51,406 nt of DNA from a virus. The notes beneath the pieces were generated by a model that ran no database searches, had not been told where the DNA came from, and saw nothing but the letters and a program-made list of their open reading frames with translations. Position numbers and translations under genes: made by a program. Below are positions 1 to 51,323 of the stretch, piece after piece (position 1 is the first letter of the stretch; the number at the start of each line of letters is the position of its first letter). Where the stretch lies: IMG/VR virus record IMGVR_UViG_3300012204_000001, one strand, 5' to 3'.

Positions 1-123
1 AGATGAAGAGAAGGAGACAGAAGAAGCGGTAGCAGTATAACCTCGACAAAAAAGAGGTGCAAAATGTCTCGTAAAATCTGGCTGTGGGCCTTGATTGGCT
101 TGCTGCTAACCAGCACAATGATG
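1..123. repeat. terminal direct repeat, left copy (circular assembly overlap)
   Basis: nt 1-123 read identical to nt 51284-51406, so the unit length is 51283 bp. The repeat carries the stop of the polymerase N-part and the start of ORF 64..309. Confidence 0.9.
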
Positions 124-309
124 CCACCAAGGAGCAATGCACAGGGTCGCTACTACGGAGGTGACCCAGAATGTTTCCTCGGGCCGTTTGGAATCGCCAT
201 CGGGCTCGCTGGGTTGGCTGGCTCCGGTGTCGGGTTCGTCGGTGCGGTCGCTGGATTCTTCGGACTCACAGCGTGGTGGTGGAGAACGGTGGCCGTATGC
301 CGTCGATAA
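64..309 (+). CDS. small secreted or membrane glycine-zipper protein (81 aa)
   Basis: GAGG-type RBS (aaaagaggtgcaaaATG). N-terminal signal-like hydrophobic segment ending AQG, then a GxxxG-rich segment GIAIGLAGLAGSGVGFVGAVAGFFG. No family recognised. Confidence 0.5.
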   Translation: MSRKIWLWALIGLLLTSTMMPPRSNAQGRYYGGDPECFLGPFGIAIGLAGLAGSGVGFVGAVAGFFGLTAWWWRTVAVCRR

Positions 310-407
310 ACGAACTGGTCGCGACCTGGGCATTACCTGTCGGAGGCGCCGTGGTATTGCTCGGCCTGATCTACGAGTTGCGCCGTCGCCGTCGGCGTGA
401 GCGATAA
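297..407 (+). CDS. 36-aa single-TM peptide with poly-Arg tail
   Basis: Found by hand in the frame of track ORF 171..407: MPSINELVATWALPVGGAVVLLGLIYELRRRRRRER. The ATG overlaps the end of ORF 64..309. The stop overlaps GTG 397 of the polymerase C-part. Confidence 0.3.
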   Translation: MPSINELVATWALPVGGAVVLLGLIYELRRRRRRER

Positions 408-1284: not shown

Positions 1285-1309
1285 GCCTTGGTTCTGGCGC
1301 ACACGAGAG

Positions 1310-1561
1310 ATGCAGGGAACAGTCATTCCGTTTCCATTCGGTTACGCATGGCATGACTGGGATCGAGATGCGTTGCTGTTCATCTGGATTCCATTCAACA
1401 AGCTCTTTGCATGGTGGAAACAGTTTGAGCTGTGGATACGTTTTGGCCGATGGGATGATGTAGTTCAACAAGCGTATCGCGCTGGTTACAATAAAGGACG
1501 TGATGATTATGATAGACGCGAAGCCGAGTGGAGCCGCTTTGTGAAAGCTAATAAGCCTTGA
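1310..1561 (+). CDS. hypothetical protein (83 aa, aromatic-rich)
   Basis: ATG 1310 in the frame of track ORF 1046..1561, directly after the polymerase stop. No family recognised. Confidence 0.5.
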   Translation: MQGTVIPFPFGYAWHDWDRDALLFIWIPFNKLFAWWKQFELWIRFGRWDDVVQQAYRAGYNKGRDDYDRREAEWSRFVKANKP

Positions 1562-1586
1562 CTTCCTCCGTGGAAAGTGTTATATT
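1558..1586 (+). promoter_or_regulatory. sigma70-type promoter with extended -10
   Basis: TTGACT (1558-1563), 17-nt spacer, TATATT (1581-1586) preceded by TGT. It has the same GTGTTATATT block as the promoters at 32647, 34525 and 35925. Confidence 0.6.
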
Positions 1587-1589
1587 ACC

Positions 1590-2051
1590 ATGCGAATTTT
1601 CGTGTCAGGTCCTATGACGAGTGGACCATCATATGAACGGAACCTGCGTCGTGCTTATGATGCTGCTGGCATCTTGTTAAAGTGCGAACAGCTTCCGTTT
1701 GTTCCACACCTGTACACTCATATCGACATCATCCACCCACAGACTTACGAGCAGTGGATGATGGTAACTCAGGGGTTCATTACCGCGTGTCACGCACTCT
1801 ATAGGATTCCAGGTGAATCCAGCGGCGCAGATCGTGAAGTCGAATACGCGCTCCAACACCACATCATCGTGTATCACAGTATGAAAGCCTTACTCACCTG
1901 GGCAAATGTCGAACCAAAGAAAGTGCGACAACTGGCTGCTGACATTCAGAGACTGGAGTCTCCCGAGGTCAGAAGCGCCGGAATCATATCATCTGTGGGC
2001 GGGACTCTTCACCATGGCGTCAGTGTTGAAACGCCGAGTGAGGGTGCCTAA
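1590..2051 (+). CDS. nucleoside 2-deoxyribosyltransferase-like protein (DUF4406-like)
   Basis: N-terminus MRIFVSGPMTSG and RIPGESSGADREVEYA fit the DUF4406 pattern (MKIYIaGPMtG ... S.G...E). No SD upstream. The last 146 nt overlap the next ORF. Confidence 0.65.
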   Translation: MRIFVSGPMTSGPSYERNLRRAYDAAGILLKCEQLPFVPHLYTHIDIIHPQTYEQWMMVTQGFITACHALYRIPGESSGADREVEYALQHHIIVYHSMKALLTWANVEPKKVRQLAADIQRLESPEVRSAGIISSVGGTLHHGVSVETPSEGA

Positions 2052-3144
2052 GAAACTACTTGGTGGTTGGGAAGTGAGTCCTACGCTATACATAGTTTTC
2101 GTTGGTCCTCCCGGCGGCCCTCGAAAGTCAACGTCTGCGAACTACAGTGAAGATCTGCTCAGTGAAATTCCAGTCGTAGAACGGGTCGCAACTTCAATCA
2201 CTAAAGAAAATTTGTTGAAGAAACTCTCAGAGATTGATGACTCCTCTCTGAGCATCTTTTCGAGCGAATTCGCGATGTTCATACAAAAAAGCGGATTCGA
2301 TATGTACGATGTACTCACGCATCTTTTCGATGCCAATAGGGATGTCTCGGTGGAAACCCTTGGCCGCGGGTTGGATTTTGCTGAGAAGCCCTGTGTTAAT
2401 CTTTTGGCCTGTACTACCCCTGACTGGATCTCGAATAATATGCCGGAGCATGTCATCGGGGGAGGATTTGCGTCTCGTGTTATCTTCGTGTTTGAGGAAG
2501 AAGTGCGTCGTCGCCAGCTCTATTATAACAAGCTGGGACTTGACTACGAGCGTATGAAGCAAATGCGTCTCGATCTGATTGACGATCTACTTCACCTAGC
2601 GAAGGATGTGGCAGGAGACTTCGAGATTGAATCTTCTGAAACAGAGGAATACATGGAGGCGTGGTATCGGGAAGTCGCTAGAAAGGCAGGTTCGATTGGT
2701 GAGAATTACAGAATGCGCGGATACATGGAGCGCAAACCAGCTCACGTCCACAAGCTCGCAATGCTACTCCATCTTGCTTACTCTGATGAGCTTGTGCTTA
2801 CTAAGGATGATTTCGATGGAGCTATCGCTATCTTGGACGATCTCGAACAGAAGATGCCACGGACGTTCTCGAATATCGGCAAGAACCCTTACGCCGTAGA
2901 CATGAACAGGATGTTGGAATGGATTGCGCGGCGGAGAGAAGTGACGAAGCGAGACCTCAAAGCAAACTTTTATCAATCAGCTGATCCAAGAAAGCTTGAA
3001 GAGTTGATTCAAGGGTTGATTGATATGGGGAAAATCAAGATGTACGTGGACGAAGAAGATCCCTACAACCAAGGGAAAACAAAACTTGTTTACTCCTTTC
3101 CAAAAGCTGCGTCTACTCAGTCTGGCGAATCCCGAAGCTCCTGA
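1906..3144 (+). CDS. P-loop NTPase, DUF3987/VirE-like putative replicative helicase
   Basis: 412 aa. Walker A-like VGPPGGPRKST, Walker B-like RVIFVFEEE. The N-terminal W..L....AP..YH.W pattern resembles phage DUF3987 proteins. Assigned from motif memory only. Confidence 0.65.
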   Translation: MSNQRKCDNWLLTFRDWSLPRSEAPESYHLWAGLFTMASVLKRRVRVPKKLLGGWEVSPTLYIVFVGPPGGPRKSTSANYSEDLLSEIPVVERVATSITKENLLKKLSEIDDSSLSIFSSEFAMFIQKSGFDMYDVLTHLFDANRDVSVETLGRGLDFAEKPCVNLLACTTPDWISNNMPEHVIGGGFASRVIFVFEEEVRRRQLYYNKLGLDYERMKQMRLDLIDDLLHLAKDVAGDFEIESSETEEYMEAWYREVARKAGSIGENYRMRGYMERKPAHVHKLAMLLHLAYSDELVLTKDDFDGAIAILDDLEQKMPRTFSNIGKNPYAVDMNRMLEWIARRREVTKRDLKANFYQSADPRKLEELIQGLIDMGKIKMYVDEEDPYNQGKTKLVYSFPKAASTQSGESRSS

Positions 3145-7417: not shown

Positions 7418-8844
7418 TACTCCTCCTCTTCGCTCGTGCTGTCAGGCCCTTGTGCTTCAATGTAGTCTGTAAGTCCAGCACCTTGCAAGGTTCTGGTAGT
7501 GGTCGATCCGTCTCCACCACGAGCCCGTTCTGCCGTATACATCCGAGTTGCTTCCGCCTCCTTTGCATCATCAGAGAGTGAATTCAACCATGCTCCTTTC
7601 TGACGCATCACAGGAGTTAACTGACTGTCAGCCACAGCACGTCCATCCTGCGTAAACGGATTCGGTGTGCTCGACAACAGCACACTCGGATCTGGTGTGA
7701 TGTTACCTTGTTTATCCTGGAACAAGATGCGAGTCTTGTGGTATGGCGGCAATTCCCAAGCCCAACCAGGACCCTGAGCAACTGCGGTCCATGTAGTATC
7801 ACCACTTTCCTTGAGCGCCGCGTTAATGTCAGCAGCAGCTTTCTGCGCGTTCTCGGGACGAACCTTAACGTCCTTTTTGGGATTGTTCACAGCATCTAGA
7901 ACAGGGGAGATAGTTCTCCAAAGCCGTTGTTTACGCTGGATGCCTTTGTCAGCTCCAGTGTCTTTCAAGAACTGTTCAGCTTGCTTCATGTCCTCGTCAG
8001 ACGGGGGTGGACCACCCTCGTACTGCTCGCCCCAGAGCTTCTGGTAGAAAGCAGAGAAGGGAACAGAGCCACCGGAAAGACGAGTGAGATCGGAAGCAAC
8101 ACCGAAACGTGCGCGTGCCTGCCAGTCGTCTAGCTTCTTACCAGCTCTGAGCAAACGCATTCTCATCTCTTCTTCTTTATTCTGTGCAATCATGTGCAGC
8201 GCGAACTTCGTTCCAGCCTCTGTCTCTGGATTCACGACACCACCAGAGAGGTCAGCAATGCTGATCGTACCAGCCACGACCTTATCAGCAAGCGAAGTAG
8301 GTGTCTCGTTCTTTAGCGTCGCGCCACGTTTGAAGGCTGCGAGTTGTGCTGTCTCCTCAGCTGCTTTGATGCCGGTTGGAAGGCCAAGTTTCTCTCTGAC
8401 TGCACGTTGAAAAGCAACGGGGTCTTTTTGGAGAAGATCTACACCACCAGTACTCATCCACTTGGCGAGAGTATCAGTGGCTACTTGACCTTCCGTCAAT
8501 CCTGTCGCTTCACGCGAGACAGCTTCGCGGCGCGCTGCTCCTGGCTTCGTGAGAGCTTCCTCGGTTCCAGGCTGAAGCACACGCTCCTTCATACCAGCAA
8601 TGGACTCCTGCATTCCGGACAGCAGATCCGTTGCACGCTCGTTAAAGCCAAACGCCTTCAGCGTTCCTGGGTTGGCCTTCTCGACATCGACCATCTTCTG
8701 CATCAGCTCAGGCTTCTGCAAGAAGAGTAGCTTTGCCTGCTGATTAAACTGCGCGTTTGGCTGAATCAGGTTTCCGATGGCAGATGCAAGCTTGCCAAGG
8801 TCCTCTCCTACGTCGCCGCCAACGAATGGAATAGTCATCGTCAA
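7417..8844 (-). CDS. virion protein (475 aa), putative internal core protein
   Basis: Long ORF whose stop overlaps the start of the 1434-aa gene. Helix-rich, charged composition. Function inferred from position only. Confidence 0.7.
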   Translation of the reverse strand: MTMTIPFVGGDVGEDLGKLASAIGNLIQPNAQFNQQAKLLFLQKPELMQKMVDVEKANPGTLKAFGFNERATDLLSGMQESIAGMKERVLQPGTEEALTKPGAARREAVSREATGLTEGQVATDTLAKWMSTGGVDLLQKDPVAFQRAVREKLGLPTGIKAAEETAQLAAFKRGATLKNETPTSLADKVVAGTISIADLSGGVVNPETEAGTKFALHMIAQNKEEEMRMRLLRAGKKLDDWQARARFGVASDLTRLSGGSVPFSAFYQKLWGEQYEGGPPPSDEDMKQAEQFLKDTGADKGIQRKQRLWRTISPVLDAVNNPKKDVKVRPENAQKAAADINAALKESGDTTWTAVAQGPGWAWELPPYHKTRILFQDKQGNITPDPSVLLSSTPNPFTQDGRAVADSQLTPVMRQKGAWLNSLSDDAKEAEATRMYTAERARGGDGSTTTRTLQGAGLTDYIEAQGPDSTSEEEE

Positions 8845-24837: not shown

Positions 24838-26808
24838 TCAAAAGCTTCTTCTGCCGTTTGGAACGCCAGGAACTCCGTTACCACCAGCTGCTCCAAGCGT
24901 CTGAATAATTGAAGCAAGCTGGCCCATTCCCGCCTCTTCACCAGCTCCACCAGGTCCGATTGCTGCTCTTGGCTGAGCTGCTGATTGAGGACCTCCGCCG
25001 CCGATGGCATTAGGCGTGGCTCCACTCCCCATCTTGAGGAGTTCGCTAAGGATGATGCGTTCTTCGTTCTTAACTTCGAACGTTTCCAACACTTGTCTCA
25101 TTGCCTCGGTTCCGGCGACGAGTCCCTTCTGGATTATATACTGTATTAGCTGTTGATTTCCGCCCATTTGAGCGAGCTGCAACATCCCGGTATAGTATTG
25201 TTGCAAGATGGTGGCAACCTGCATCCAGTTCTGTCTATCGAGTACTTTGTTCTGTTGCTGACCTGCGGCGTTCAGCTCAATCAGCAAACCGTGGCGAATC
25301 AGCTCAACAGGCATATCGAAGAACTGTTGAACCATTCGTCCACCTTCGGCTACTTCCCAATACTCGACACGACGAGGGCCGAACTGCTGCACTACTACTG
25401 CTGTGTCAATGATCAGCTCCTGCACGAACTCTTTCACGTTTTGGTAAACGTAGTCGAACTTTTTCGCTCCTTCTTGGATGCGCGCAAGGTCGCCAGTAGC
25501 CGTGCCAGGAGTACCCGCAGGAGGTTGGCCAAGAGTTGTCTCGTTAACTCCTGATCGCTGCTGCGAGTACATGAGGGTGGCTTGTTCATTATTGAATGCA
25601 GAGTTATAGACTTCTCCAAGCTGCATGGTTTCAACATGGCTCATGTCATCCACGAACCACATCTTACCAGGGAAGATCGGTTCACCTGGCTTATAACCAG
25701 CGAGCTTGGAAATCTTTATCATCCGCATGTTCGCCAGCGTAGCGTTGTCGAGACGCTGACGATGTTGCGTCGTGATCTCACGCTGGAACTGCTCGTTCTG
25801 CTTACAGATGCCGATGCCAGTCCAACGATGTTCTACTGGGAAGTAGACGCCAACACGGTAGGGACGGTGCAGATCCTCATGCCAGTTGTATCGAGCTGAC
25901 ATGATGAAGCCTGCGCCACGATGGTAGTGGACTACGATCTCCTTATCGAACTTGCCTCCATCCACATTGAAGCTAACCCAGATTTCGACCCAATCTAACA
26001 ACTTTGGCCACACAGCCTCACGCTTCTCAAGAGTCTCTTGAGCGCGCTGGAACTTCCGTTCCTGTCCTGATGTACCTGTGACTGTTGATTTCGTGACCCA
26101 GCTCTCTAGCCTCTTAAAGGTCCCTTTCTTGAAGAAGCCAGACTGCTCCATCGTCAGGACTTCGTATGGAGACCTCGCGTGTTCCTCTCCACACCAGGGT
26201 GATGTCTGGGGGTCGGTTGCTGAGAAGGGCATGAGGAAGCGACCACTTGCGACTGGATCAAGAACTGCTCCATCTCGAACTGTGACGGGGTACTCGGACT
26301 CGATTCCTCCAACTTGACGGACTGCGGTGCGAACGATCTTCTCATATCCCACCTTTCCTATGCCAGTGCCGAACTTCTCGATTTCCAACACAGCAGAGTC
26401 AAGCCGACGACGGACCTTCATCTCTTTCAGTAGCTCGTGATCCAAAAAGCGCTCCACAGGGCGCGCGTAGTCCTGCCAAGAAGGCGAGCGTGCTTGAGCT
26501 GAGACCATTTGGTTGAGTGCGAACAATGTCGTCATAGTCCTCGCATGGACAGCCTCTACAGCAATCGCTGTCAGCGGAATAACGATAGTTGCCGCACCTG
26601 AGAACGGGAAGGTCGCTCTTTTTGTAGTCGGCTCCGCCCAGTAGTCCTTCTGGTACGAGAGCAGCCGGTCCATCCATGGCTGTCGCTCTGCGTAATGGTT
26701 CAAAAGCTCGGACTCTAGGTACGAGACGAGCCTTCTCTCTGTATCTTCGTCGAGATTTAGTTCACGAGGGTAGTCAGCCACGTCATCTCGCCGTGTTATA
26801 GGCTGCAC
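24838..26808 (-). CDS. portal protein (656 aa)
   Basis: Size and position downstream of the large terminase. The Gly-rich C-terminal tail is typical of portals. No search run. Confidence 0.75.
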   Translation of the reverse strand: MQPITRRDDVADYPRELNLDEDTERRLVSYLESELLNHYAERQPWMDRLLSYQKDYWAEPTTKRATFPFSGAATIVIPLTAIAVEAVHARTMTTLFALNQMVSAQARSPSWQDYARPVERFLDHELLKEMKVRRRLDSAVLEIEKFGTGIGKVGYEKIVRTAVRQVGGIESEYPVTVRDGAVLDPVASGRFLMPFSATDPQTSPWCGEEHARSPYEVLTMEQSGFFKKGTFKRLESWVTKSTVTGTSGQERKFQRAQETLEKREAVWPKLLDWVEIWVSFNVDGGKFDKEIVVHYHRGAGFIMSARYNWHEDLHRPYRVGVYFPVEHRWTGIGICKQNEQFQREITTQHRQRLDNATLANMRMIKISKLAGYKPGEPIFPGKMWFVDDMSHVETMQLGEVYNSAFNNEQATLMYSQQRSGVNETTLGQPPAGTPGTATGDLARIQEGAKKFDYVYQNVKEFVQELIIDTAVVVQQFGPRRVEYWEVAEGGRMVQQFFDMPVELIRHGLLIELNAAGQQQNKVLDRQNWMQVATILQQYYTGMLQLAQMGGNQQLIQYIIQKGLVAGTEAMRQVLETFEVKNEERIILSELLKMGSGATPNAIGGGGPQSAAQPRAAIGPGGAGEEAGMGQLASIIQTLGAAGGNGVPGVPNGRRSF

Positions 26809-27343
26809 AAGCTACTGTACCGGCCCCAAAGCCGATCCCTAACATCTTTAGTTTGTAAAGAAAAGACGGCTTTTTGGGCTCTGGGAACGGTGCAAACGTC
26901 ATTTTTGGTGTTGGCGTCGAGTCTGCGTCAATTCCGATCAGAATTCCTGGAATGTAGACCCGAGAAATGTCCAAATTACCGCTCCGTAACGAAAAAGTAG
27001 CAACAGAAGCAGTGTCACCCAGCTTAGTCCCGCCGTGATACGACAAAACAGGACGAATCTGCGATCGTTGGGCAGTGTCACAGGGGATTCTAACGTACTC
27101 AGTATCCACATGGGTGACACTGTGGACAAGGTTGAGCGTATCCGTCGTCGCTTTCCGTCTTTTCCAGATACGCACAGAGTCCTTGAACCATTCTGGAACT
27201 GTTTTGACTGTATCATACTGCGTTATTATGATCGGAACTGCTGGTTTTGTTATCGTTCGAGGCAAAAACTCACGAGTTGCAAAGCCAGTCGTCAGTGCTG
27301 TGACAGCGATCAACGCGAGAGTTGCCTTAAAATCCATTTTCAC
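26783..27343 (-). CDS. membrane-anchored protein (186 aa) between terminase and portal
   Basis: N-terminal hydrophobic segment ATLALIAVTALTTGFA and C-terminal segment MLGIGFGAGTVACAAY. ATGA overlap with the terL stop. Confidence 0.6.
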   Translation of the reverse strand: MKMDFKATLALIAVTALTTGFATREFLPRTITKPAVPIIITQYDTVKTVPEWFKDSVRIWKRRKATTDTLNLVHSVTHVDTEYVRIPCDTAQRSQIRPVLSYHGGTKLGDTASVATFSLRSGNLDISRVYIPGILIGIDADSTPTPKMTFAPFPEPKKPSFLYKLKMLGIGFGAGTVACAAYNTAR

Positions 27344-29013
27344 ATCGAATACCCTGTCTCGATGTCACGGTTAGCCATCAACTCCGTCTCTGTCCTCGCG
27401 TACTGATCGAATTTTGCTCGGCTGAGACCAGGCATCCACACGTCTGGTCCGTATGCGAGGGCGTCAAGCATGTGAATCTTCTTACTGGCCCCAAAGGAGT
27501 CATACTCTTTAATAAGCTCTTTCGAGTCATCTTCTTGTCCATCGACAGGGAAGAAGATGGAACCTGAACTAAAGTAATTCGCCAGGCCTCTGACTCGCAT
27601 CGGTTTAGATAGAGCACGCCCTCCCACCACAGGCGAAATTGGGACAATGTTAAAGTATGTCCCTCTGAAGAGCATTTCTCTCTCGAACCAGTGTTTAAAA
27701 ACACCACTAAACAAGACTTCCTCAATGGCCACCAAGCGAGGCTGCCATCTAGCAACCCGCTTAAATACAAAGTCGCACAACTGAGGAGGCTTCCAATCGC
27801 GTTCGAACGCCTGTAAGATGAAACAACGATTAAGCGAGTCGGTCCCTGTAACAACAAAGCCACCAAGACCAGACATAGCAGGGTCGATAAGGATGCAAAT
27901 ATCCAGATCACGGACGTTCAGCCTGGTCTGAACCTTCCCAGAAAAGACGACAATCGTGTTGAAGCCCACCCAATGATACCACCTCTTCCAGCCCTTGTCG
28001 AACTCCGTCGCCCCCTCTTCAGGATTATTCGCATACTGAGCGGTCCAAACCTTACGGTTTTTACGAAGTATGGCAAGTGCATCCTGCGTGAAACCACCCT
28101 CGGGGAATATTGGAGTGAGTTCAGGTACATTGCCTTCCAAGAGCTTGCCAGTTGGCTCCTCAACTCCCCGGATATATTTGAGTAGCTGATCACCGTAACG
28201 CTCGTGTATGTGTGAGTACAGGTCGTCGTATGCCCAACGAGTACCGATCAAGTCGAAGTGATCGCGACCAAAGTCAGAGAAGAAAGACTGGATGTTGTCA
28301 AACCACTCTTTGGCTGCGGCCATAACTGCTTCGGAGTCTCTTGCTTTATCTCCGATGAGGTCATCGAACTTGATATAGTTGTAGTGGCGACCCTGAGACC
28401 GACCACCGACACCCATAGTGTCAATAGTAGGCTCAGGCCACGTCTGTGAACGCGGTAGTTCGAGTTCGTGCCGATTGATGCGCTGCTTTCGTGGCGAAGG
28501 GACAATCTCTGGAAAGAGCCCCATGAGAAGCGGGTTCCCAAGAAAATGCCCTGTGATTGCAAAGAGAAAATTCGAGGCTTGTCCATCGGTCTCGTGACAG
28601 ATTAAGAGACGACAGTCTGGACCAGCGTTTCGAGGCCACGGCTCCGATTCAGTTACGTCCGGTAGAACAATCTGAATCGAATCACCAATCGTATCAACCG
28701 TCGATTTCAGGTGGCCACGAGGAAGGAGGATCTCGCGGAAGCGCCACTCTTTGTTTCTTTCCATCCAGCTGCATAGATGTCCATGCAGATTCTCGGCTAG
28801 TCTATCATAACCGAGGATTGATTGGTTGAGGAAGAAAAGGTCTATCTTTGCGCGTCTACGGAGATAGTTCCATGTATCTGTGTCAATTTCACGGAATTTC
28901 TCCTCAACTTTCTTCTTCGTATCAGAAATGGTTGTTTCGTCTAGTAGCTTTCTCCATTCCTCATCCGAGACTTCGCCTTCTTGCTCGTAATTACGGATTA
29001 GAAGGCTTGGCAT
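27340..29013 (-). CDS. terL: terminase large subunit
   Basis: 557 aa. Walker A-like LLPRGHLKSTV, Walker B-like LLICHETDG. The C-terminal nuclease pattern is ILIDPAMSG ... AIEEV ... MLDALAY. Confidence 0.9.
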   Translation of the reverse strand: MPSLLIRNYEQEGEVSDEEWRKLLDETTISDTKKKVEEKFREIDTDTWNYLRRRAKIDLFFLNQSILGYDRLAENLHGHLCSWMERNKEWRFREILLPRGHLKSTVDTIGDSIQIVLPDVTESEPWPRNAGPDCRLLICHETDGQASNFLFAITGHFLGNPLLMGLFPEIVPSPRKQRINRHELELPRSQTWPEPTIDTMGVGGRSQGRHYNYIKFDDLIGDKARDSEAVMAAAKEWFDNIQSFFSDFGRDHFDLIGTRWAYDDLYSHIHERYGDQLLKYIRGVEEPTGKLLEGNVPELTPIFPEGGFTQDALAILRKNRKVWTAQYANNPEEGATEFDKGWKRWYHWVGFNTIVVFSGKVQTRLNVRDLDICILIDPAMSGLGGFVVTGTDSLNRCFILQAFERDWKPPQLCDFVFKRVARWQPRLVAIEEVLFSGVFKHWFEREMLFRGTYFNIVPISPVVGGRALSKPMRVRGLANYFSSGSIFFPVDGQEDDSKELIKEYDSFGASKKIHMLDALAYGPDVWMPGLSRAKFDQYARTETELMANRDIETGYSM

Positions 29014-30707: not shown

Positions 30708-31214
30708 TTAATACGAGCCCGCCATTACTCCGGAGAGTTCTACCCTCTTGAACACCTTGAAGGTGAGCGGAGCGCCTGGTGCGGCTGTCATGTGGAGACG
30801 AAAACCTTGGGCGGGAATTGCGAACTCTGCTACTTTGCCAGCGAGCGGGAGGGGAACATCAGCTAACGCTCCACCCAACGGCCGATCTTGTAAGGTATAG
30901 AACGTAGGGGCTGCTGCGTCCGGATCATCAGTACATTCGATTGTTCCTGCTGTAGCTGATGTCGGAGCATACAGTACTATCGTCCTTGCATCAGCATAGA
31001 CTTCTCTCGCTTTTACAACGGGAGATAGTCCTGTGCCGGTTGCCACGATCATATCTGGGCACTTCACAAGATCGAATGACATGGAGAACCCGAGAATATT
31101 GGAGGAGTTTACTGCACGATCCCGCAATATACAAGAATTGTGTCCCATCGTCAAGCCCCCAGGTTCATATGCGCCGCGCGGATCGTTCCATGCGCGATTC
31201 GGCTGTGGGTACAT
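30708..31214 (-). CDS. hypothetical protein (168 aa), first gene of the late arm
   Basis: ATG 31214 is preceded by AGGA. The track ORF starts at TTG 31232. No family recognised. Confidence 0.6.
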   Translation of the reverse strand: MYPQPNRAWNDPRGAYEPGGLTMGHNSCILRDRAVNSSNILGFSMSFDLVKCPDMIVATGTGLSPVVKAREVYADARTIVLYAPTSATAGTIECTDDPDAAAPTFYTLQDRPLGGALADVPLPLAGKVAEFAIPAQGFRLHMTAAPGAPLTFKVFKRVELSGVMAGSY

Positions 31215-31265
31215 GGTTCCTGAGATTAGCAACGTGATTTTGAGCTGAGGAGAGCGGAAATAATT

Positions 31266-31278
31266 TTTAGCCGCTAAA
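31266..31278. promoter_or_regulatory. 13-bp dyad TTTAGC-C-GCTAAA (operator-like), site 1
   Basis: Perfect inverted repeat in the divergent control region. Related copies lie at 39183, 46551, 22785 and 12431. Confidence 0.5.
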
Positions 31279-31338
31279 TTTGAGGCAGGTCGCTAAAATC
31301 TCATCTCTAACACTAAAATCTCGTCTTTAGTTGGTAAA
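31272..31338 (+). promoter_or_regulatory. four phased (G/A/C)CTAAA-type half-sites, about 20-bp period
   Basis: cGCTAAAtttgag (31272), cGCTAAAatctcatct (31291), cACTAAAatctcgtct (31311), gGGTAAAtatgag (31332). The middle two are 12/12 nt CTAAAATCTC(A/G)TCT repeats. Confidence 0.5.
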
Positions 31339-31426
31339 TATGAGTTCTTCATGTCAAAAACTCACGGTACAATTAGTCGCGGATCAATGATGATAAACTG
31401 TCACTCGTTTTTTGACGGTACCGCCC

Positions 31427-31626
31427 CCGAAGAGAAGCCGAAGGCCACCGAAGATACACCGTGCCCCGAACAGACACCGAATGCGGCGCTTGATAATGAT
31501 TATCATTCGCATCTGAGGTGACCCTGGGTCGCACCAGTTGAGAATGGTTTTCAGTCGCATCCCCAGCGAGGTGTGACGGAATGTTACACCAGTGTGTGGC
31601 TCGCATCCCCCGAAGCGGACCCGAAG
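31427..31626. repeat. array of seven CCGAA(G) pentamers, mostly 10-12 bp apart
   Basis: CCGAA at 31427, 31438, 31448, 31466, 31477, 31609 and 31621. TCGCATCCCC occurs at 31555 and 31601. Confidence 0.6.
31491..31505. promoter_or_regulatory. 15-bp perfect palindrome TGATAAT-G-ATTATCA
   Basis: AT-rich dyad embedded in GC-rich non-coding sequence. Confidence 0.45.
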
Positions 31627-31841
31627 CGGGCCTCGTTCCATATCGCAACGCTGAGCTAACTCTATGTCCTGCAATGAGTTAGGAACGTGGCACGCGTCCT
31701 GCTCTACTGAGATCTGTCGGGCGGAGGCACCAGACTCCCTGGCACGGTTCTCGCAATATTCTCTGGTGCAACGGGACGGCAACGGCGCATATACACGCGG
31801 ACTGGCCTGGCCCCCACATACCCTAACGGAGGGGAACGAGT

Positions 31842-32126
31842 ATGGCGCACGCAATCGGGTGCATTGGCTCCAGTACGGACCAGCGCACGGCGAGGCGAGA
31901 GCCAATGACCAAGGAGCAGCGTGCAAAGAATCGCAAGCTTGTTCCACGGCGGAACCAAGATCGCAAGATCGCCTTTGTGGAGATCAAGCGGGATGGTGAA
32001 AGGCCGAAGGTCAAGGCGATCCGAGCAGGTCACGCGCATCACTACCAGCAGGCGTTCTGGTGGGCTGATGTGAGTCTCGTCAAAGATGCTGATGGGAAAG
32101 TGGTGACGATTAAACGTCACAAATAA
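31842..32126 (+). CDS. small basic protein (94 aa, or 73 aa from ATG 31905)
   Basis: GGAGGGG RBS 7 nt before ATG 31842. Lys/Arg-rich (KEQRAKNRKLVPRRNQDRK). Followed 9 nt later by tRNA-like element A. Confidence 0.55.
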   Translation: MAHAIGCIGSSTDQRTARREPMTKEQRAKNRKLVPRRNQDRKIAFVEIKRDGERPKVKAIRAGHAHHYQQAFWWADVSLVKDADGKVVTIKRHK

Positions 32127-32135
32127 TGTGACGAA

Positions 32136-32211
32136 GTGTGCGGTCCTGTGGGACTGAGCCGAGTCTCGTTTAGCACGGGAACGGTCACAGGTTCAAATCC
32201 TGTCGCACACA
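32136..32211 (+). ncRNA. tRNA-shaped element A (non-canonical)
   Basis: Perfect 7-bp terminal stem GTGTGCG/CGCACAC, directly abutting the T-arm ACAGG-TTCAAAT-CCTGT. The interior does not give a standard D-arm plus anticodon arm. Hairpin GGGACT-GAGCCG-AGTCTC lies at 32150-32167. Confidence 0.5.
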
Positions 32212-32234
32212 TTGAAGTCTGGCTCGTTGGGAGG

Positions 32235-32435
32235 ATATCCCATCCATCCCATCCACGCACATGGATGGAATAGGGCTCCCTCCCAAGGGGTGGGTACCCC
32301 CCCCCATTGTTCTCAGTCTATCTATAAAAATAATATATATAGATAGAGAGACTGAGAATAGATAGGGGGGAGGGGGGACGGTCAGGAGGGGAAGGGGTCA
32401 GTCCATCCACATGGATGGATGCGATGGATGGGATA
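32235..32435. repeat. composite dyad-symmetric element of about 200 bp (origin, terminator or resolution-site candidate)
   Basis: Outer arms ATATCCCATCCATCCCATCC (32235-32254) and GGATGCGATGGATGGGATAT (32416-32435) match 19/20. Inner arms are TTCTCAGTCTATCTATA (32310-32326) and TATAGATAGAGAGACTGAGAA (32338-32358), around an AT-only centre. C8 and G6AG6 tracts flank the core. Confidence 0.8.
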
Positions 32436-32646
32436 TTCACGCGGGGAGATAGATGCTGAATCTGAGAATCCGAGTGTGGCGATGGGAGTTCGCGGTGACT
32501 CTCAAGCCCATCCGCTCGTTACATGAGTGGAGATCGGCAGACCGTGCAATTCGTGATGCGTGGGGCCATTAGCCTCAGATTGTAAGTAGGGTCCGCCGGT
32601 CAGGTGTGGTGTGAAAGCCACACTTGGCATTGCCGAAAGTTGGGGC

Positions 32647-32675
32647 TTGACAACGTGTCGTGACCGTGTTATATT
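32647..32675 (+). promoter_or_regulatory. sigma70-type promoter with extended -10
   Basis: GGGGCTTGACAA: TTGACA (32647-32652), 17-nt spacer ending in TGT, TATATT (32670-32675). Confidence 0.7.
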
Positions 32676-32812
32676 TACGGTGCGTTGTAGGAAATGAGTG
32701 GGTACGGAGAACAACCGTTAATCCAGGGTAATAAGCCTGGTACACTCATTGGCTCTTTGACAATCGCGTGAGCGCTGAATCCCCTCACATATCACCACGA
32801 GGGAGGTTCGGT

Positions 32813-33247
32813 ATGTTGTATGTGAAGCAGGAGAAGCCTGTCACCACGAAGCACGAGAAGCTCGGTGACATCAGCTTCGAGGTCGAGGTCCCCCAGCCAC
32901 AGGATCTGGAAGAGTTGAAGGTCGCCTGCGGTGGAGAGGCCAACCTGGTCGAGTTCGCGTGTGGTCAGATCGCGACCAACGCGAAGAACGTGGCTCGGGC
33001 TTACGCCAGGGGCTTCGAGGTTCCGAAGGATGTGACACTGACTCCCGAGAAGATCGCGGAGTTCGTGGCACAGATCGCGAAGCGGGGTCAGGAACTGGCT
33101 CACGACTACTCGCCTGCGGCCGAGGGCGCGGGTGGGCCGAGCAAGGCGAAGAAGGCTGCCGCGTACGATCAGATCGCGGCGCTCGTCGAGAGCGGGCAGG
33201 AGTTCACGAAGGAGCAGCTGTTCTCGCTCCTTCAGCAGGCGAAGTAA
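32813..33247 (+). CDS. acidic early protein (144 aa)
   Basis: ATG 32813 preceded by GAGGGAGG. First gene after a strong promoter. The track ORF starts at GTG 32768. No family recognised. Confidence 0.65.
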   Translation: MLYVKQEKPVTTKHEKLGDISFEVEVPQPQDLEELKVACGGEANLVEFACGQIATNAKNVARAYARGFEVPKDVTLTPEKIAEFVAQIAKRGQELAHDYSPAAEGAGGPSKAKKAAAYDQIAALVESGQEFTKEQLFSLLQQAK

Positions 33248-35299: not shown

Positions 35300-35390
35300 A
35301 TGGCGGGGTGGTTGACTGTTGGTATGTCACGACGGACTGTAAATCCGTTGCCTTCGGGCTTCGAGGGTTCGATTCCCTCCCCTTAGCCAT
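35300..35390 (+). tRNA. tRNA-Tyr(GUA)-like element B with non-canonical terminal helix
   Basis: D-arm TGAC-TGTTGGTAT-GTCA, anticodon arm ACGGA-CTGTAAA-TCCGT (GTA at 35339-35341), long variable arm GCC-TTCG-GGC, T-arm GAGGG-TTCGATT-CCCTC. The ends pair as ATGGC+GGG with CCC[TTA]GCCAT, which is a bulged helix rather than a 7-bp acceptor stem. Confidence 0.5.
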
Positions 35391-35435: not shown

Positions 35436-35530
35436 AGCACAGAGCCTTCCTCCGAGGGCATGGCAGCTAGGGACTGAGCGTGGCCATCGCGAGTCTCCCT
35501 GGATTGTGGGTTCGATTCCCACCTGTGCTT
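35436..35530 (+). ncRNA. tRNA-shaped element C (94 nt, non-canonical)
   Basis: Perfect 7-bp terminal stem AGCACAG/CTGTGCT and T-arm GTGGG-TTCGATT-CCCAC. The 63-nt interior contains GGGACTGAGC (35470-35479) and CGAGTCTC (35490-35497), as in element A. Confidence 0.5.
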
Positions 35531-47471: not shown

Positions 47472-47857
47472 TGGGATCAACATTCCAGGGGAAGCACAGA
47501 CACATCGCGGTCGCAGAAGTAGTGGTAGAAGCGCTGAAGGTTTTCGACAAGGTCGAGGGCCATCCTTCTCGTGGCTGGAAGGACATGCCCATCGGCGAGA
47601 AGCTGGAAGCCGAGGTCGAGATCAAGGACATCGAGGAGAAGCTGCCAGAGGTCGAGACTCCGAAAACTCTCCGCGATGCTGTGAAGCTAGGCCTCATCTA
47701 CACCCTTCTTCATGATCGCCCCACACTGGAGTCCTCGCTGCCAGCAAGCGATGCTGGAGGCGATACTCAATCGTCTCAACCGAACGTGATCGACGTGCAG
47801 TCTGAAGCTGAGGCCATTGAAGCTGGAACCGAACCCAAGGGAACGACAATCAAGTGA
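47471..47857 (+). CDS. hypothetical acidic protein (128 aa)
   Basis: TGATG overlap upstream and GTGA overlap downstream. Confidence 0.55.
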   Translation: MGSTFQGKHRHIAVAEVVVEALKVFDKVEGHPSRGWKDMPIGEKLEAEVEIKDIEEKLPEVETPKTLRDAVKLGLIYTLLHDRPTLESSLPASDAGGDTQSSQPNVIDVQSEAEAIEAGTEPKGTTIK

Positions 47858-49167
47858 ACACAGTACATTTCAGTAAGGTCGAGATTCGCGAGCGGCTTCG
47901 TGAAGACATTGGCGAGGAAGAACTCGAATGGCTCATGAAGTCACTCGTGGCTCTCGGTCAGCTGCAGCCCATCGTCCTTCAGCAAGAGGATGGAAAGTAT
48001 ATCCTTCGCGCTGGTGAAAGAAGGCTCCGTGCAGTCGAGAGACTTGCTAAGGAGAATCTTGCTCCGAAAGGGCATGAAGTCGGGCATCTCTCCTTCTCGA
48101 TCATTGGGCATCTCCCGCAGCACGTCCAGCTCATGGTCGAATTTGATGAAAACGAAAAACGCAAAGACTTCACATACGTCGAAAAGGCACGCTTCATCCG
48201 CAAGTTCCACGAAGAAATGGAGAGACAGTCAATTGCTGCAGGTGGAAAGTGGACTGCAGAACTTACGGCTGCATCTCTTCGTCTCTCACCAGCGTCTATC
48301 TCTCATTACCTCCGAATTGAAGAAGCTATTAAAACAGACCCTGGAGTTGCAAAAGCAACTACGCTCTCTTCGGCTGTTAAAAGGATGAAGGTAGCAGAGA
48401 AGCTTCGCGCACGCCATGTGGAGGTAAGAGACAATGCAGCAGAAGCGTATAGTCGAGCTGCTGATATTGCCAAGATGGGTGACGCCCTCGACCTTATCAG
48501 AGCCATTCCATCCAACTCTGTTGACCTCGTTAACTTTGACCCTCCCTGGGGAGATGACACAGGTCATAAGAGTAACGACAACTGGGAAGGCTTCGACGAT
48601 GATACTGAAAGTTCTGACCGCATTATTAACGGTCTGCTTCCAGAGTTATGTCGCGTGCTACGAGATGATAGATTTCTCATCTTCTGGTATCGAGCCTGGG
48701 CGTATGGAGACATGGTTGGGAGACTCTCAGCCGCCGGCTTCTCATTGAAGTTTGGGCGTACACCATGTATCTGGTTCAAACCTGATAAGGTGTCAGACCA
48801 GAACAGATTCCCGGAGAAGCAGCTGATTGACGCATACGAGACATTCATGATCGTGCGGAAAGGTGATCCAGTTCTGCACGAGCAAGGACGACCCAATGTC
48901 TTCTGTTACAACCGCGTACCCGTGGCTGCGCTTATCCATCCCACTGAGAAGCCCATTGATCTTTGCGAGGCTCTCATCAAGCTGCTTACAGTCCCAGGTG
49001 AGCTGGTTCTTGATCCAACAGCTGGCTCGATGGCAATACTCCATGCCGCCCTACGTCAGAATAGGCGAGCCCTTGGATTCGAGCTTAATGAAACGAGTCA
49101 TCAGCGAGGACTTACTCGTCTGGGCGAGTACCTTAAGACACTTCACCAAGTAGAGATACTGAAATGA
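47854..49167 (+). CDS. ParB-like nuclease domain fused to DNA methyltransferase (N6A/N4C, beta class)
   Basis: ParB N-domain LGQLQPIVL...ILRAGERRLRAVERL. Methylase motif IV NFDPPWG, then HPTEKP and motif I LDPTAGSMA. Confidence 0.85.
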   Translation: MNTVHFSKVEIRERLREDIGEEELEWLMKSLVALGQLQPIVLQQEDGKYILRAGERRLRAVERLAKENLAPKGHEVGHLSFSIIGHLPQHVQLMVEFDENEKRKDFTYVEKARFIRKFHEEMERQSIAAGGKWTAELTAASLRLSPASISHYLRIEEAIKTDPGVAKATTLSSAVKRMKVAEKLRARHVEVRDNAAEAYSRAADIAKMGDALDLIRAIPSNSVDLVNFDPPWGDDTGHKSNDNWEGFDDDTESSDRIINGLLPELCRVLRDDRFLIFWYRAWAYGDMVGRLSAAGFSLKFGRTPCIWFKPDKVSDQNRFPEKQLIDAYETFMIVRKGDPVLHEQGRPNVFCYNRVPVAALIHPTEKPIDLCEALIKLLTVPGELVLDPTAGSMAILHAALRQNRRALGFELNETSHQRGLTRLGEYLKTLHQVEILK

Positions 49168-49344: not shown

Positions 49345-49530
49345 ATGGCTAAGCTGAGCATAGAGCTTAACGGCTTCGCATTTGATGTCAGGAATCCTGA
49401 TGAAGCCGTTGTAATAATTTCCGAACCAACGATGGGACGCGAGTTAGGTAGCAGTATCTCGGTTCCACTGAAGGTGCTTCGTCAAGCAATGGATCAAATC
49501 AATAAAGGTTGGAAAGGTTCTCGCAAGTGA
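49345..49530 (+). CDS. hypothetical protein (61 aa)
   Basis: The ATG lies 1 nt after the previous stop. GTGA overlap with the polymerase start. Confidence 0.5.
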   Translation: MAKLSIELNGFAFDVRNPDEAVVIISEPTMGRELGSSISVPLKVLRQAMDQINKGWKGSRK

Positions 49531-51323
49531 CTACCGGCATCGGCACCAAGCGCGTACCAAACGAGGGTCCACTGGATGCTCGAATCTATTGCGTTGGTGA
49601 GGGACCGGGTGCAGATGAGGTTATTGAAGGACGGCCGTTTATTGGTGCGTCTGGCAGTAAGCTTAGAGCTGTCCTTGGAAACAACGGAGTTAGTGAAGAT
49701 TCCGTTCGATTCTGCAATCTGGTCCAACATCGTCCGCCGAACAACGTCTTCGCAGCGGTCCTCCGTAGTAGTGAGCTGGCAGCCGGAGTCGAGGAGCTTG
49801 CTAGTGACATTAGAAAGTTTCGTCCTAATGTCGTCGCCGCGCTTGGAGCTTGGCCCCTTTATTTCCTCACTGGTAAGCGGGGAAAGAAAGCTGCTGGAAC
49901 AGGAATTGGAAAGTGGAGAGGATCTATTCTCCCATGTACTCTCCCAGGATGCGAAGGAGTAAAGGTAATTGCCTCCTATCACCCTGCTTTTATCATCAGG
50001 CAGCCAACAGCGTATCCTATATTCGACACCGACATTAAGCGTATTGTTTCTGATTCAAGCTTTGCCGAACTCCGGCTTCCTGTTCGCAACGTCATTATCG
50101 ATCCTAGAGGTGAAGAACTCGAGTCTTGGGTTCAACGGCTTTGCGAAGCTGAGTATCTTGCCTGTGATATTGAGACTATTAAGAAGTCGGCCCGCATCCT
50201 CTGTCACGGCTTCAGCCCTGATCCTCTTACGTCTGTTGTCTTTCCGCACTCACCAGGAGACTTTTCTCGCTTCAGTGCCGTTGACGCGATATATCGCAGC
50301 AGAGCACAGAAAATCTTCCATAATGGAGGGACTTTCGACATACCCATCCTAGAAGCAAACGACTTCGTTATAGAGAACTTCTTCTGGGATACGATGGCTT
50401 GTCAACATGTGATGTGGGCGGAGTTGCCTAAGAGTCTGGAATATCTCTGCTCCGTCTACACTAGACAACCTTACTATAAGACGGCCGGTCGAGCTGAGAT
50501 TCCAGAGGACGCGAAGGGATGGAGTGAGAAGTTCGAGAAGAAAGAACTCTACATCTACAACGGCACCGATACTGGTGTGACGTACGAAGTGTTCGAGAAT
50601 CAAGTGAGGGAGATGGCAGAAGGTCCAAAGGACTGGATGAAAGTGTTCAGGTTCGAAATGTCACAATATGCTCCAGCCGCACGAATCAGCAACGCAGGAA
50701 TGCTCATAGACCTGGAGCGTCGCGCGATGCTGAAGCGAGCACTGGAGATAAAGTGGGCAATCAATCAGTTCGTACTGGATAGATTGACTGGTTACAAGAC
50801 CAATGTCAACTCTCCAAAAGTAATAGCCAAGATACTCTATGACAAGGACAAGTTCGGACTTCCACCACGCACGAGCCACAAGACTGGAGAGGTAACGACA
50901 GATGAAGATGCTATCGTATCCCTCATCGCCTTTACCAAAGACAGACTTTCTAAGCTCAAGCCAGGTGGAAACGCCGTCGAGTTCTGGAGAGTCAGGTACG
51001 AAGCTCTCAAGACAATCCTTGTCATCCGCGGAGTTAGAAAGTTGTTGTCTTCTTACATCAATGTTCCAATCAGTTCAGATGGGAGACTCCGCGCTACATA
51101 TAAGCCTGTTGGTCCTGAGACGGGACGGTGGGCTTGCGCCATGTACTTTGATGGTACAGGAGCTAATGCGCAGACGTTTCCTCGGGAGGTGTTTGAACTT
51201 AAGAATTACGAGGATAATGAACTCATGAAGTCTGTTCTACCATACATTCTCGAATGCGAAAAGGAGGATCTCGAATTGGAGGTAGATGAAGAGAAGGAGA
51301 CAGAAGAAGCGGTAGCAGTATAA
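49527..51323 (+). CDS. UDG (family 4-like) - 3'-5' exonuclease - family A DNA polymerase N-terminal part
   Basis: UDG motifs GEGPGADEV, GRPFIGASGSKL, SYHPAFI. Exonuclease motifs ACDIETIK, HNGGTFDIPIL, YNGTDTGVTY. Polymerase thumb region LLSSYI...DGRLRATY...ETGRWAC and NAQTFP (cf NLQNIP). The ORF ends in an acidic tail before motif A. Confidence 0.85.
   Translation: MTTGIGTKRVPNEGPLDARIYCVGEGPGADEVIEGRPFIGASGSKLRAVLGNNGVSEDSVRFCNLVQHRPPNNVFAAVLRSSELAAGVEELASDIRKFRPNVVAALGAWPLYFLTGKRGKKAAGTGIGKWRGSILPCTLPGCEGVKVIASYHPAFIIRQPTAYPIFDTDIKRIVSDSSFAELRLPVRNVIIDPRGEELESWVQRLCEAEYLACDIETIKKSARILCHGFSPDPLTSVVFPHSPGDFSRFSAVDAIYRSRAQKIFHNGGTFDIPILEANDFVIENFFWDTMACQHVMWAELPKSLEYLCSVYTRQPYYKTAGRAEIPEDAKGWSEKFEKKELYIYNGTDTGVTYEVFENQVREMAEGPKDWMKVFRFEMSQYAPAARISNAGMLIDLERRAMLKRALEIKWAINQFVLDRLTGYKTNVNSPKVIAKILYDKDKFGLPPRTSHKTGEVTTDEDAIVSLIAFTKDRLSKLKPGGNAVEFWRVRYEALKTILVIRGVRKLLSSYINVPISSDGRLRATYKPVGPETGRWACAMYFDGTGANAQTFPREVFELKNYEDNELMKSVLPYILECEKEDLELEVDEEKETEEAVAV

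Follow-up and report, generated by a model that had tools for sequence, protein, structure and literature searches.

A conserved fold-back dyad between the divergent gene arms of an uncultured phage as a candidate replication origin

What does a large, imperfectly palindromic element do at the point where the two gene arms of a phage genome diverge? This question is raised by IMG/VR virus record IMGVR_UViG_3300012204_000001, a stretch of 51,406 nucleotides (nt), hereafter the window, which is the complete or nearly complete genome of an uncultured tailed phage. The element, which we call the dyad, lies in a 1.5-kb non-coding region from which both gene arms depart. As judged by sequence comparison, the dyad is real, conserved and lineage-specific, and it is found in no named family. 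We tentatively interpret it as a single-copy, cis-acting fold-back element that most likely serves as an origin of bidirectional replication. An annotation made earlier from the letters of the window (the original prediction) had listed several candidate roles for this site. Its view of a genuine non-coding composite dyad held, conservation was found, and a replication origin remains the best single candidate among the roles listed, while the terminator, the G-quadruplex and the resolution site did not hold.

The dyad is assembled from the following parts, with coordinates referring to the window.

32208-32464: whole quasi-palindrome (fold-back dyad), symmetric about ~32332-32336, delimited by self reverse-complement local alignment, inverted-repeat analysis and folding
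32235-32254: left outer arm, the CCATC-unit array ATATCCCATCCATCCCATCC, 19/20 complementary to 32416-32435
32249-32268: left box P1, the local palindrome CCATCC-ACGCACAT-GGATGG, with a spacer of 8 nt here and 4 nt in most relatives
32287-32305: left G/C clamp GGGGTGGGTACCCCCCCCC, a local palindrome ending in C9; a Gn-loop-Cn stands at the same position in all relatives
32310-32326: inner left arm TTCTCAGTCTATCTATA, pairing with 32338-32358
32323-32341, + strand: A/T-only centre TATAAAAATAATATATATA, A-rich, 19 nt
32338-32358: inner right arm TATAGATAGAGAGACTGAGAA, pairing with 32310-32326
32365-32398, + strand: right G-rich clamp, G6AG6 at 32365-32377 and then GGAGGGGAAGGGG at 32386-32398
32403-32418: right box P1, CCATCC-ACAT-GGATGG, a perfect 16-base-pair (bp) palindrome that forms a local hairpin
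32413-32435: right outer arm, the GATGG-unit array GGATGGATGCGATGGATGGGATAT
32416-32435: right partner of the left outer arm, GGATGCGATGGATGGGATAT, 19/20 complementary to ATATCCCATCCATCCCATCC

The arms, local hairpins, inner arms, A/T centre and G tracts of the original prediction were all found where it had placed them, including the match of 19 in 20 between the outer arms. It was also right that the dyad lies outside genes, between a tRNA-like element and the first strong sigma-70 promoter. Some details needed correction. The C tract described as C8 is a C9 (32297-32305), and the symmetry, which is real within the proposed extent of 32235-32435, continues imperfectly to ~32208-32464. Taken over their full length, the arms are only ~75-85% complementary.

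Several measures set the dyad apart from the rest of the genome. Its folding z-score is -6.45 as DNA and -9.52 as RNA, and none of 200 shuffled sequences was as stable (0/200), so that both folds are far more stable than shuffles. Of 1279 overlapping 260-nt segments of the genome, the one with the dyad is the most stable, with a GC-corrected z-score of -6.0 compared with -3.3 at the next independent site. The centre is the longest A/T-only run in the genome (19 nt; the runner-up has 12), the lowest-GC 40-mer lies within the dyad, and so do three of the four G/C homopolymers of at least 6 nt. CCATC/GATGG units are ~9 times denser here than in the genome background. The dyad is single-copy, and its right box CCATCC-ACAT-GGATGG is the sole exact match to CCATCC-N4-GGATGG in the genome. 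The hexamer GGATGG itself occurs 50 times genome-wide against 24 expected; outside the dyad it is almost always on the sense strand (- in 3-31 kb, + in 32-51 kb), so this excess appears to reflect coding or strand composition and not binding sites scattered through the genome.

The dyad is also not an artefact of one assembly. Three independent assemblies, namely an ENA viral operational taxonomic unit, an NCBI metagenome-assembled genome (MAG) contig and another ENA assembly, read through it with 100%, 99.9% and 100% identity over 1651 nt. This agreement shows that the dyad is not a chimera, the outcome that the original prediction had regarded as fatal to its case. As a separate observation, contigs of several related loci (identified here by L numbers) break inside the dyad, namely L053 (1-30), L065 (1-25), L066 (1), and L069 and L072 at their ends, and L070 ends close by. 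Homopolymer lengths vary between near-identical genomes, as with G11 versus G14 (L052 1040-1046 versus L053 155-171). The dyad is either hard to assemble or to sequence, or truly length-variable, and it is a hotspot of assembly breaks for these phages.

Relatives from many metagenomes were found with the first early protein and the upstream 94-amino-acid (aa) open reading frame (ORF) as queries; single-protein queries of IMG/VR, made with the 94-aa ORF and with the flanking protein of 174 aa, returned nothing. Wherever a relative has an early protein of at least 51% identity and its contig spans the region, a dyad of 187-287 nt occupies this position. At least ten diverged uncultured relatives share its architecture, and the original prediction, which would have yielded to a lack of conservation, gained support on this point. 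From the outside inwards, the plan comprises a CCATC array, a CCATCC-N4-GGATGG box, a Gn-loop-Cn clamp, an inner inverted repeat and the A/T-only centre, and the right half is the mirror image, ending in a GATGG array. The centre takes the form T-A(5-23)-TAATATATATAG, in which the A run ranges from 5 to 23 nt among relatives and the total length is 17-24 nt in 11/11 relatives. The unit counts are mirrored in nine of the 11, the left side having n CCATC units and one GATGG and the right side one CCATC and n GATGG units (n = 1-6).

The boxes and the centre are nearly invariant while the intervening spacers diverge (in a six-sequence alignment, in which the half-sites are invariant), which points to sequence-specific recognition. 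Among the relatives with these near-invariant parts, the neighbouring early protein is only 51-69% identical. The 16-bp palindrome of the right box is identical in eight relatives. In two lineages, the outer arms have been replaced with the symmetry kept: L073 and L079 carry CCATAC-ACGT-GTATGG on both sides, and L064 carries GGGGTGGTACTGTC in its left arm and GACAGTACCACCCC in its right. The four bases in the middle of the box differ from one relative to another (ACAT, ATGT, ACGT, GCAT), and the spacer within the box is 1-18 nt in some copies.

The inner arms behave in the same manner, in that their sequences change between lineages and their complementarity stays, as in the pairs TTCTCAGTCT/AGACTGAGAA, CTCCTCA/TGAGGAG, CCTCAGTAG/CTACTGAGG and GTGTACTCT/AGAGTACAC. 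In addition, the lengths of the left and right arms, which range from 60 to 126 nt, are correlated (r=0.87). This correlation argues for a fold-back structure, either a hairpin or a cruciform, as independent protein sites on duplex DNA would not require it. The box-to-box spacing is 136, 139, 140, 141, 151, 152 or 225 nt, and differs by 5 nt between the near-identical L052 and L053. We judged covariation by per-sequence arm alignments, the folding energies of the + and - strands and the arm-length correlation, and not by RNAalifold; on a MAFFT alignment of nine dyads, RNAalifold paired only the invariant outer boxes, the interior being too rich in insertions and deletions to align. The near-identical L054 and L055 differ by two substitutions in the dyad, one in each arm, at positions that are not partners in the minimum-energy fold.

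Searches with parts of the dyad outside this group recovered no comparable element. The 18-mer ATCCCATCCATCCCATCC occurs at 45 IMG/VR loci (L001-L045), none of which has a comparable dyad. About 33 of them fall in coding sequence that is homologous across unrelated phages, the others being tandem repeats or isolated matches; on the opposite strand, the 18-mer would presumably read as a Gly-Trp-Asp repeat (our own translation, frame not checked). This 18-mer is a trap for motif searches with the dyad. The two-box pattern, searched in 185,579 bacterial and archaeal genomes, gave two chance matches in coding DNA, one in a Luteolibacter MAG and one in an unclassified MAG, and thus no hint of the host.

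From the anatomy, genome uniqueness, conservation and fold-back symmetry constraint observed above, we infer a sequence of protein binding, melting and initiation. A phage initiator would bind the CCATC/GATGG units and the two mirror-oriented 16-bp CCATCC-N4-GGATGG boxes; this protein could be the DUF3987 primase-helicase, the basic protein of 94 aa encoded next to the dyad or some other early protein. The A/T-only centre of 19 nt, the easiest spot to melt in the genome, would then open, with the G/C homopolymer clamps confining the bubble. The complementary inner arms would fold into hairpins and hold the region open for loading of the helicase or primase, and transcription from the upstream sigma-54 or sigma-70 promoters may aid opening or priming. 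The forks would then proceed co-directionally with both divergent gene arms. At the level of sequence, the centre provides the A/T-rich unwinding element of an origin, with a length in the relatives as given above, and the conserved mirror arrays and the two 16-bp palindromes beside it may be repeated initiator sites. The phage also encodes replisome components of its own, namely PolA, the DUF3987 primase-helicase and an SNF2 helicase. The origin reading explains together the unique melting centre, the clamps, the mirror arrays, the identical boxes, the single copy, the position at the divergence point and the presence of a primase-helicase.

Several observations weigh against an origin. The original prediction had suggested looking for a GC-skew switch; the cumulative GC skew reaches its minimum on a plateau at 30.7-31.9 kb, in step with the change of gene orientation, and the dyad is on the rising flank. 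Since the switch coincides with the orientation change to the left of the dyad, it does not lend independent support to an origin. We found no recognisable origin-binding protein, and the adjacent ORF has no known fold. The box-to-centre distances of 60-126 nt are unusual for a rigid initiator complex. In L046, L047 and L063, whose early proteins are 47-49% identical, there is no dyad at this position and other repeats are found instead. Finally, the polarity of the + strand and the probable transcription of the dyad, described below, fit a role as RNA at least as well. The origin and RNA readings are close and are not mutually exclusive, because transcription can activate or prime an origin.

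The dyad and its neighbours form a conserved module: sigma-54-type promoters, a small basic ORF, the tRNA-like element, the dyad and sigma-70 early promoters. The components of this module in the window are given below.

31491-31505 and 31539-31553: enhancer-like palindromes, two degenerate copies, TGATAATGATTATCA and TGAGAATGGTTTTCA
31688-31703 and 31740-31755, + strand: two sigma-54-type motifs TGGCAC-N5-YYGCW, upstream of the 94-aa ORF
31842-32126, + strand: small basic ORF of 94 aa, the syntenic partner of the dyad
32136-32211, + strand: tRNA-like element directly upstream of the dyad, called tRNA-Leu(TAG) by ARAGORN
32647-32675, + strand: first strong sigma-70 early promoter, TTGACA-17-TATATT, conserved in relatives
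32752-32763: GCTCTTTGACAA box, downstream of the TTGACA-17-TATATT promoter and ~50-60 nt upstream of the start of the first early gene

The statement in the original prediction that no adjacent gene explains the dyad was therefore too strong, as the dyad always occurs with the small basic ORF, usually with the tRNA-like element, and downstream of sigma-54-type promoters. This arrangement suggests a conditionally expressed control region beside the early promoters.

Transcription most probably enters the dyad from the left. The tRNA-like element and the dyad, about 7-30 nt apart in most relatives, have no terminator between them, and in L076 and L069 a sigma-70 promoter stands directly before the tRNA-like element and is aimed into the dyad. 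L052, L054 and L058 each have a small ORF, equipped with a good ribosome-binding site, that starts only 15-35 nt past the dyad and leaves no room for a promoter, so transcripts must cross the dyad, which thus cannot be an efficient terminator. Promoter and context analysis revealed no leftward transcription entering the dyad, and terminator scans showed no enrichment. In addition, an intrinsic terminator is inconsistent with the 19-nt loop and with the lack of a U/T tract after either arm on either strand. On these grounds, the strong bidirectional terminator of the original prediction is not supported.

The small ORFs that follow the dyad differ among lineages. In the window, a 39-aa ORF with a ribosome-binding site comes directly after the dyad (32454-32573, + strand), and in relatives there are post-dyad ORFs of 52-53 aa (L058 2615-2776; L072 1587-1750), with no homology between lineages. 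The L058 ORF resembles, by eye and from a manual translation, an L072 ORF located upstream of the tRNA-like element; if this likeness holds, small genes are shuffled around the module.

Strand polarity is another consistent property of the dyad. In 11/11 relatives, the + strand of the centre is rich in A (A fraction 0.61-0.94). All relatives have a GC skew of +0.12 to +0.56 in the right arm and one near zero in the left arm. Mismatches between the arms are more often G.T (41) than A.C (19), and in 10/11 relatives RNA folding favours the + strand over the - strand by 5.5-17 kcal/mol. The sequences behind these counts are related to one another and hence are not independent trials. The polarity fits selection on the + single strand, as either RNA or DNA, and could instead stem from strand-biased C-to-T mutation in a rightward-transcribed region.

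These observations bring forward a close rival, only a little less likely in our view than the origin, in which the dyad acts as + strand RNA within a transcript running from the sigma-54 or sigma-70 promoters through the small ORF and the tRNA-like element. The RNA would be a hairpin of ~250 nt or a string of five local hairpins, and might serve as an RNase III processing or stability determinant that sets the upstream unit apart from the downstream genes, as a leader that regulates these genes, or as a non-coding RNA freed beside the tRNA-like handle by RNase P or Z. The open path from the tRNA-like element, the inward promoters of L076 and L069, the crossing transcripts, the more stable + strand fold with its wobble excess and A-rich loop, the covarying inner stems and arm lengths, and the tight link to the tRNA-like element all speak for this alternative. 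RNase III cuts long helices of ~20 bp and upwards, and when the dyad was assessed as an RNase III hairpin, a basal stem of 20-27 near-perfect bp was predicted in the probably transcribed region. However, an RNA helix needs neither self-palindromic boxes nor two boxes of the same sequence, and L073 and L079 have changed both copies together. Only about 63% of the arm-alignment columns are matched, with many transversions, insertions and deletions, and functional RNAs seldom contain long G/C homopolymers or variable (GGAT)n arrays. There is no matching Rfam family, the wobble bias could reflect C-to-T mutation of the non-template strand, and no dyad follows a second tRNA-like element of the window (~35436-35530). 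A narrower version, which we consider improbable, holds that the tRNA-like element and the dyad are one expressed unit, in which the tRNA-like handle directs RNase P or Z to release a ~250-nt hairpin RNA with an A-rich loop. If true, the released hairpin would represent a new class of non-coding RNA in phages, corresponding in a bacterial virus to the tRNA-hairpin RNAs of herpesviruses, and it might act as a sponge for proteins, supply double-stranded RNA or prime an RNA-primed origin.

Readings that place the function of the dyad in duplex DNA fare less well. It is unlikely that the dyad is tied to the genome ends, as a pac-like recognition site for terminase or as a concatemer-processing palindrome beside direct terminal repeats. 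In podoviruses such as the N4-like phages, early and late genes converge on the linear map, and the divergent non-coding region is where the termini of such a genome would fall after circularisation. The clusters of short repeats that flank the bendable A/T centre of the dyad resemble the pac site of phage P1, and T7 has a palindrome near its terminal repeat that functions in concatemer processing. Strong early promoters follow the dyad immediately, the large terminase has distant relatives in cyanopodoviruses with terminal repeats, Anabaena phage A-4L among them, and at least five contigs break inside the dyad, with L070 ending near it. The breakpoints, however, differ (left arm, centre, right arm), as expected of an assembly or sequencing problem at a homopolymer hairpin, three assemblies read through, and the terminase genes are 2.6-5 kb away. 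Still less probable is a regulatory or partition-like site on double-stranded DNA, comparable to a gal-type repressosome or to the parS-type centromere of P1, where a dimeric protein on the two boxes would loop out the A/T centre and control central or early promoters. The identical 16-bp palindromes, with 6-bp half-sites one helical turn apart, are typical of helix-turn-helix dimers, the A-tract centre could bind a bending protein, the phage has a ParB-N/methyltransferase fusion, and weak promoter-like hexamers occur within the centre. This looping is at odds with box spacings that are out of helical phase and differ by 5 nt between L052 and L053, with the variable spacer within the box, and with a distance from the dyad to the early promoter that ranges from ~5 nt (L064) to more than 200 nt (window, L054, L058). 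Moreover, the -35-like sequences are not conserved, and the covariation of the inner arms and of arm length would go unexplained. We give very little credence to the idea that the dyad has no function of its own and is a chimera, an inverted-terminal-repeat junction, a hairpin-telomere resolution site or a selfish miniature inverted-repeat element. Assembly artefacts and mobile elements can indeed take the form of long palindromes, and several contigs break here, but three independent assemblies have the identical sequence and the dyad is conserved in synteny in at least ten diverged relatives. The centre is asymmetric in every relative, and the arms are less complementary than terminal repeats would be. 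The proteins scanned included no protelomerase, protein-primed polymerase or transposase, and no copies were found in bacterial genomes.

Other specific identities were tried and rejected. A canonical G-quadruplex (four runs of at least three G, loops of 1-7 nt) does not fit the window, in which one loop is 10 nt, and the strict motif occurs only in L052 and L054 of the 11 relatives; it is lacking in the window and in nine of the 11 relatives, and the G-quadruplex potential noted in the original prediction is not supported as a defining feature. A hairpin-telomere site of the N15 telRL type does not fit a centre that is never self-complementary in any relative, as its A fraction attests, and this also speaks against the resolution site of the original prediction, taken as one for hairpin ends; the absence of protelomerase applies to the proteins scanned, which did not include every small ORF. 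A remnant of a miniature inverted-repeat transposable element or insertion sequence is contradicted by the single copy, the fixed syntenic position in all relatives and the lack of evident duplication at the ends. In Rfam 15, the window produced only generic miRNA-precursor hairpin matches, with scores of 19-27 bits against gathering thresholds of 54-200 bits, and the dyads of ten relatives had no match at E<=0.01. An origin of the DnaA-box type, with TTATCCACA-like 9-mers, was considered since the right box contains ATCCACA with 7/9 agreement, but those central bases vary while the half-sites CCATCC and GGATGG are invariant. A phased operator pair of the gal or lac type is incompatible with spacings of 136-152 and 225 nt, which are out of phase.

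The module around the dyad is itself unusual for a phage, in that an orphan basic protein and a tRNA-like element are combined with sigma-54-type promoters that have enhancer-like palindromes. Promoters that depend on sigma-54 are rarely seen in phages. The motif TGGCAC-N5-TTGCW, in many cases present twice in tandem, was found on the + strand in 16 of the 21 related loci searched, where we take chance to give roughly 0.02 matches per locus (a rough estimate, not computed). Wherever the position of the small basic ORF is known, the motif lies upstream of it, except in L060/L061, where it is inside the called ORF. Its positions in relatives are as follows.

L046: 4510
L047: 4323
L052: 216 and 390
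L054: 1749 and 1813
L057: 2039 and 2080
L058: 1934 and 1986
L062: 1415
L064: 1369
L079: ~1905

Enhancer-like palindrome arrays are located 150-270 nt upstream of these motifs and differ in sequence between lineages. L046 (4236-4360) and L047 (4049-4166) have four copies of TGAGAATGATTCTCATTCGCA, and L079 (1700-1900) has many TTGCATTTTGCAA-like repeats. No enhancer-binding ATPase was seen among the proteins scanned.

The 94-aa ORF has 45 homologues, all unnamed, and a Pfam domain appears only on the weakest hit; the protein itself has no Pfam or PHROG match. Its AlphaFold (AF2) model has a mean confidence score (pLDDT) of 80.6 and no fold match in the PDB, the best having E=1.7. The tRNA-like element combines an acceptor stem of 7 bp with a canonical T-arm, GGTTCAAATCC; its D-like hairpin, GTCCnnnnGGGAC, is followed by TGAG, and its anticodon domain is aberrant. 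Relatives keep the acceptor stem and the GGTTCAAATCC T-arm, and ARAGORN calls a tRNA in the window only; an Rfam search of 31000-33000 (E<=1) and of ten relatives gave no tRNA match. The elements in relatives are at the following positions.

L051: 388-445
L054: ~2205-2278
L060: ~2293-2349
L062: ~2432-2508
L064: ~2070-2133
L069: ~765-847
L073: ~330-374
L076: ~7925-7968

The second copy in the window, which is on the + strand, lies just past a normal tRNA-Tyr (35304-35389) and is not called by ARAGORN. Downstream of the dyad there are one or two TTGACA-17-TATATT promoters, the GCTCTTTGACAA box and the first early gene. The box is at the same position in L051, L052, L054, L057, L058, L060, L062, L064, L065 and L079; with a -35-like core and no matching -10, it may be an operator or a leader element. 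In L063 (2350-2860), the small ORF is followed by a canonical intrinsic terminator GCCCCCATTCGTGGGGGCTTTT, after which come five copies of AATGAGGACATTG overlapping tandem early promoters at their -35 regions.

We compared the dyad with known systems for each of the two leading readings. The origins oriS and oriL of herpes simplex virus 1 (HSV-1), the papillomavirus origin and those of phages P4 and lambda have inverted sites or short repeats around an A/T core, and the P4 origin is recognised by its own primase-helicase. The dyad is like them in its A/T-only centre flanked by inverted or palindromic candidate sites or repeats, its non-coding position between divergent units, its ability to form hairpins once unwound and its variable repeat number; as in P4, the phage encodes a protein of the primase-helicase class. 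In contrast to these origins, the dyad, as a putative origin, has neither sequence similarity to them nor a recognised origin-binding protein, and it has much longer, variable arms (60-126 nt), G/C homopolymer clamps and a linked tRNA-like element and small ORF. Origins or promoters that act as single-strand hairpins include the mitochondrial OriL, which lies beside tRNA genes, ssoA of rolling-circle plasmids and Frpo of the F plasmid. These share with the dyad a strand-specific fold-back, a variable stem, a conserved A/T-rich loop (here T-rich on the - strand) and, for the dyad, a tRNA-like neighbour. They act at a single-stranded DNA stage, whereas here we deal with a tailed double-stranded DNA phage with its own primase, and the hairpin is ~10 times the size of OriL. 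A lineage-wide element of ~155 bp from another virus realm, which is reported to have highly conserved clusters of nucleotides at fixed positions, a high AT content and an essential role in an undefined DNA transaction, offers a precedent for a complex viral cis element found by comparison alone. It has no sequence relation to the dyad, and its length is strictly conserved while that of the dyad is 187-287 nt.

For the RNA reading, RNase III hairpins such as the R-sites of T7, the lambda N leader and the long-range stems flanking rRNA are the closest in kind. Like them, the dyad would form an imperfect hairpin, its basal helix having at least 20 bp, in probably transcribed intergenic sequence that separates expression units. 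It differs from the T7 sites in being 4-5 times longer, with a conserved 17-24-nt A-rich apical loop, palindromic boxes, homopolymers and no Rfam match. The activator RtcR acts through sigma-54, a parallel to the sigma-54-type motifs of the module. Transcription of YrlA in Salmonella is under RtcR (PMC4201824). The tRNA-miRNA-encoded RNAs of murine gammaherpesvirus 68 (MHV68) and the bacterial YrlA Y RNAs (PMC4201824) likewise join a tRNA-like module to a stem or hairpin. In comparison with these RNAs, the hairpin of the dyad is 3' of the tRNA-like element rather than enclosing it and is far longer than a pre-miRNA; no Ro60 gene was seen, and no YrlA or Y RNA match was found in Rfam. The general type of the dyad, a dyad-type viral origin or cis element, is familiar; its size, modular palindromic build, strand polarity and association with sigma-54-type motifs and a tRNA-like element are unusual. 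For this phage clade, known from metagenomes only, the dyad is the most conspicuous cis element and a concrete candidate for the origin; if it works as RNA instead, it would represent a long-hairpin RNA of a new kind, associated with a tRNA mimic.

The region had no match among GenBank phages by blastn, and literature searches found no description of this element or of the phage clade. The nearest cultured phages have at most 30% amino-acid identity in terminase and polymerase. The principal features of the two gene arms are as follows.

3113-31232, - strand: structural and packaging arm, with an SU10-type portal, the large terminase, a virion protein and a 1434-aa orphan
24838-26808, - strand: SU10-type portal
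27340-29013, - strand: large terminase
32813 to the end, continuing at 1-3144, + strand: early/replication arm
47854-49167, + strand: ParB-N-domain/methyltransferase fusion
1906-3144, + strand: DUF3987 primase-helicase

In addition to the last two, the + arm encodes the SNF2 helicase, a PD-(D/E)XK exonuclease, an AAA_24 ATPase and a family A polymerase fused to uracil-DNA glycosylase. The ORF of this polymerase (49509-51323, + strand) has an N-terminal domain of the uracil-DNA-glycosylase superfamily and reaches a stop codon after the first third of the polymerase domain. The rest of the enzyme may be a 295-aa ORF at 397-1284 on the + strand, which would make it a split polymerase.

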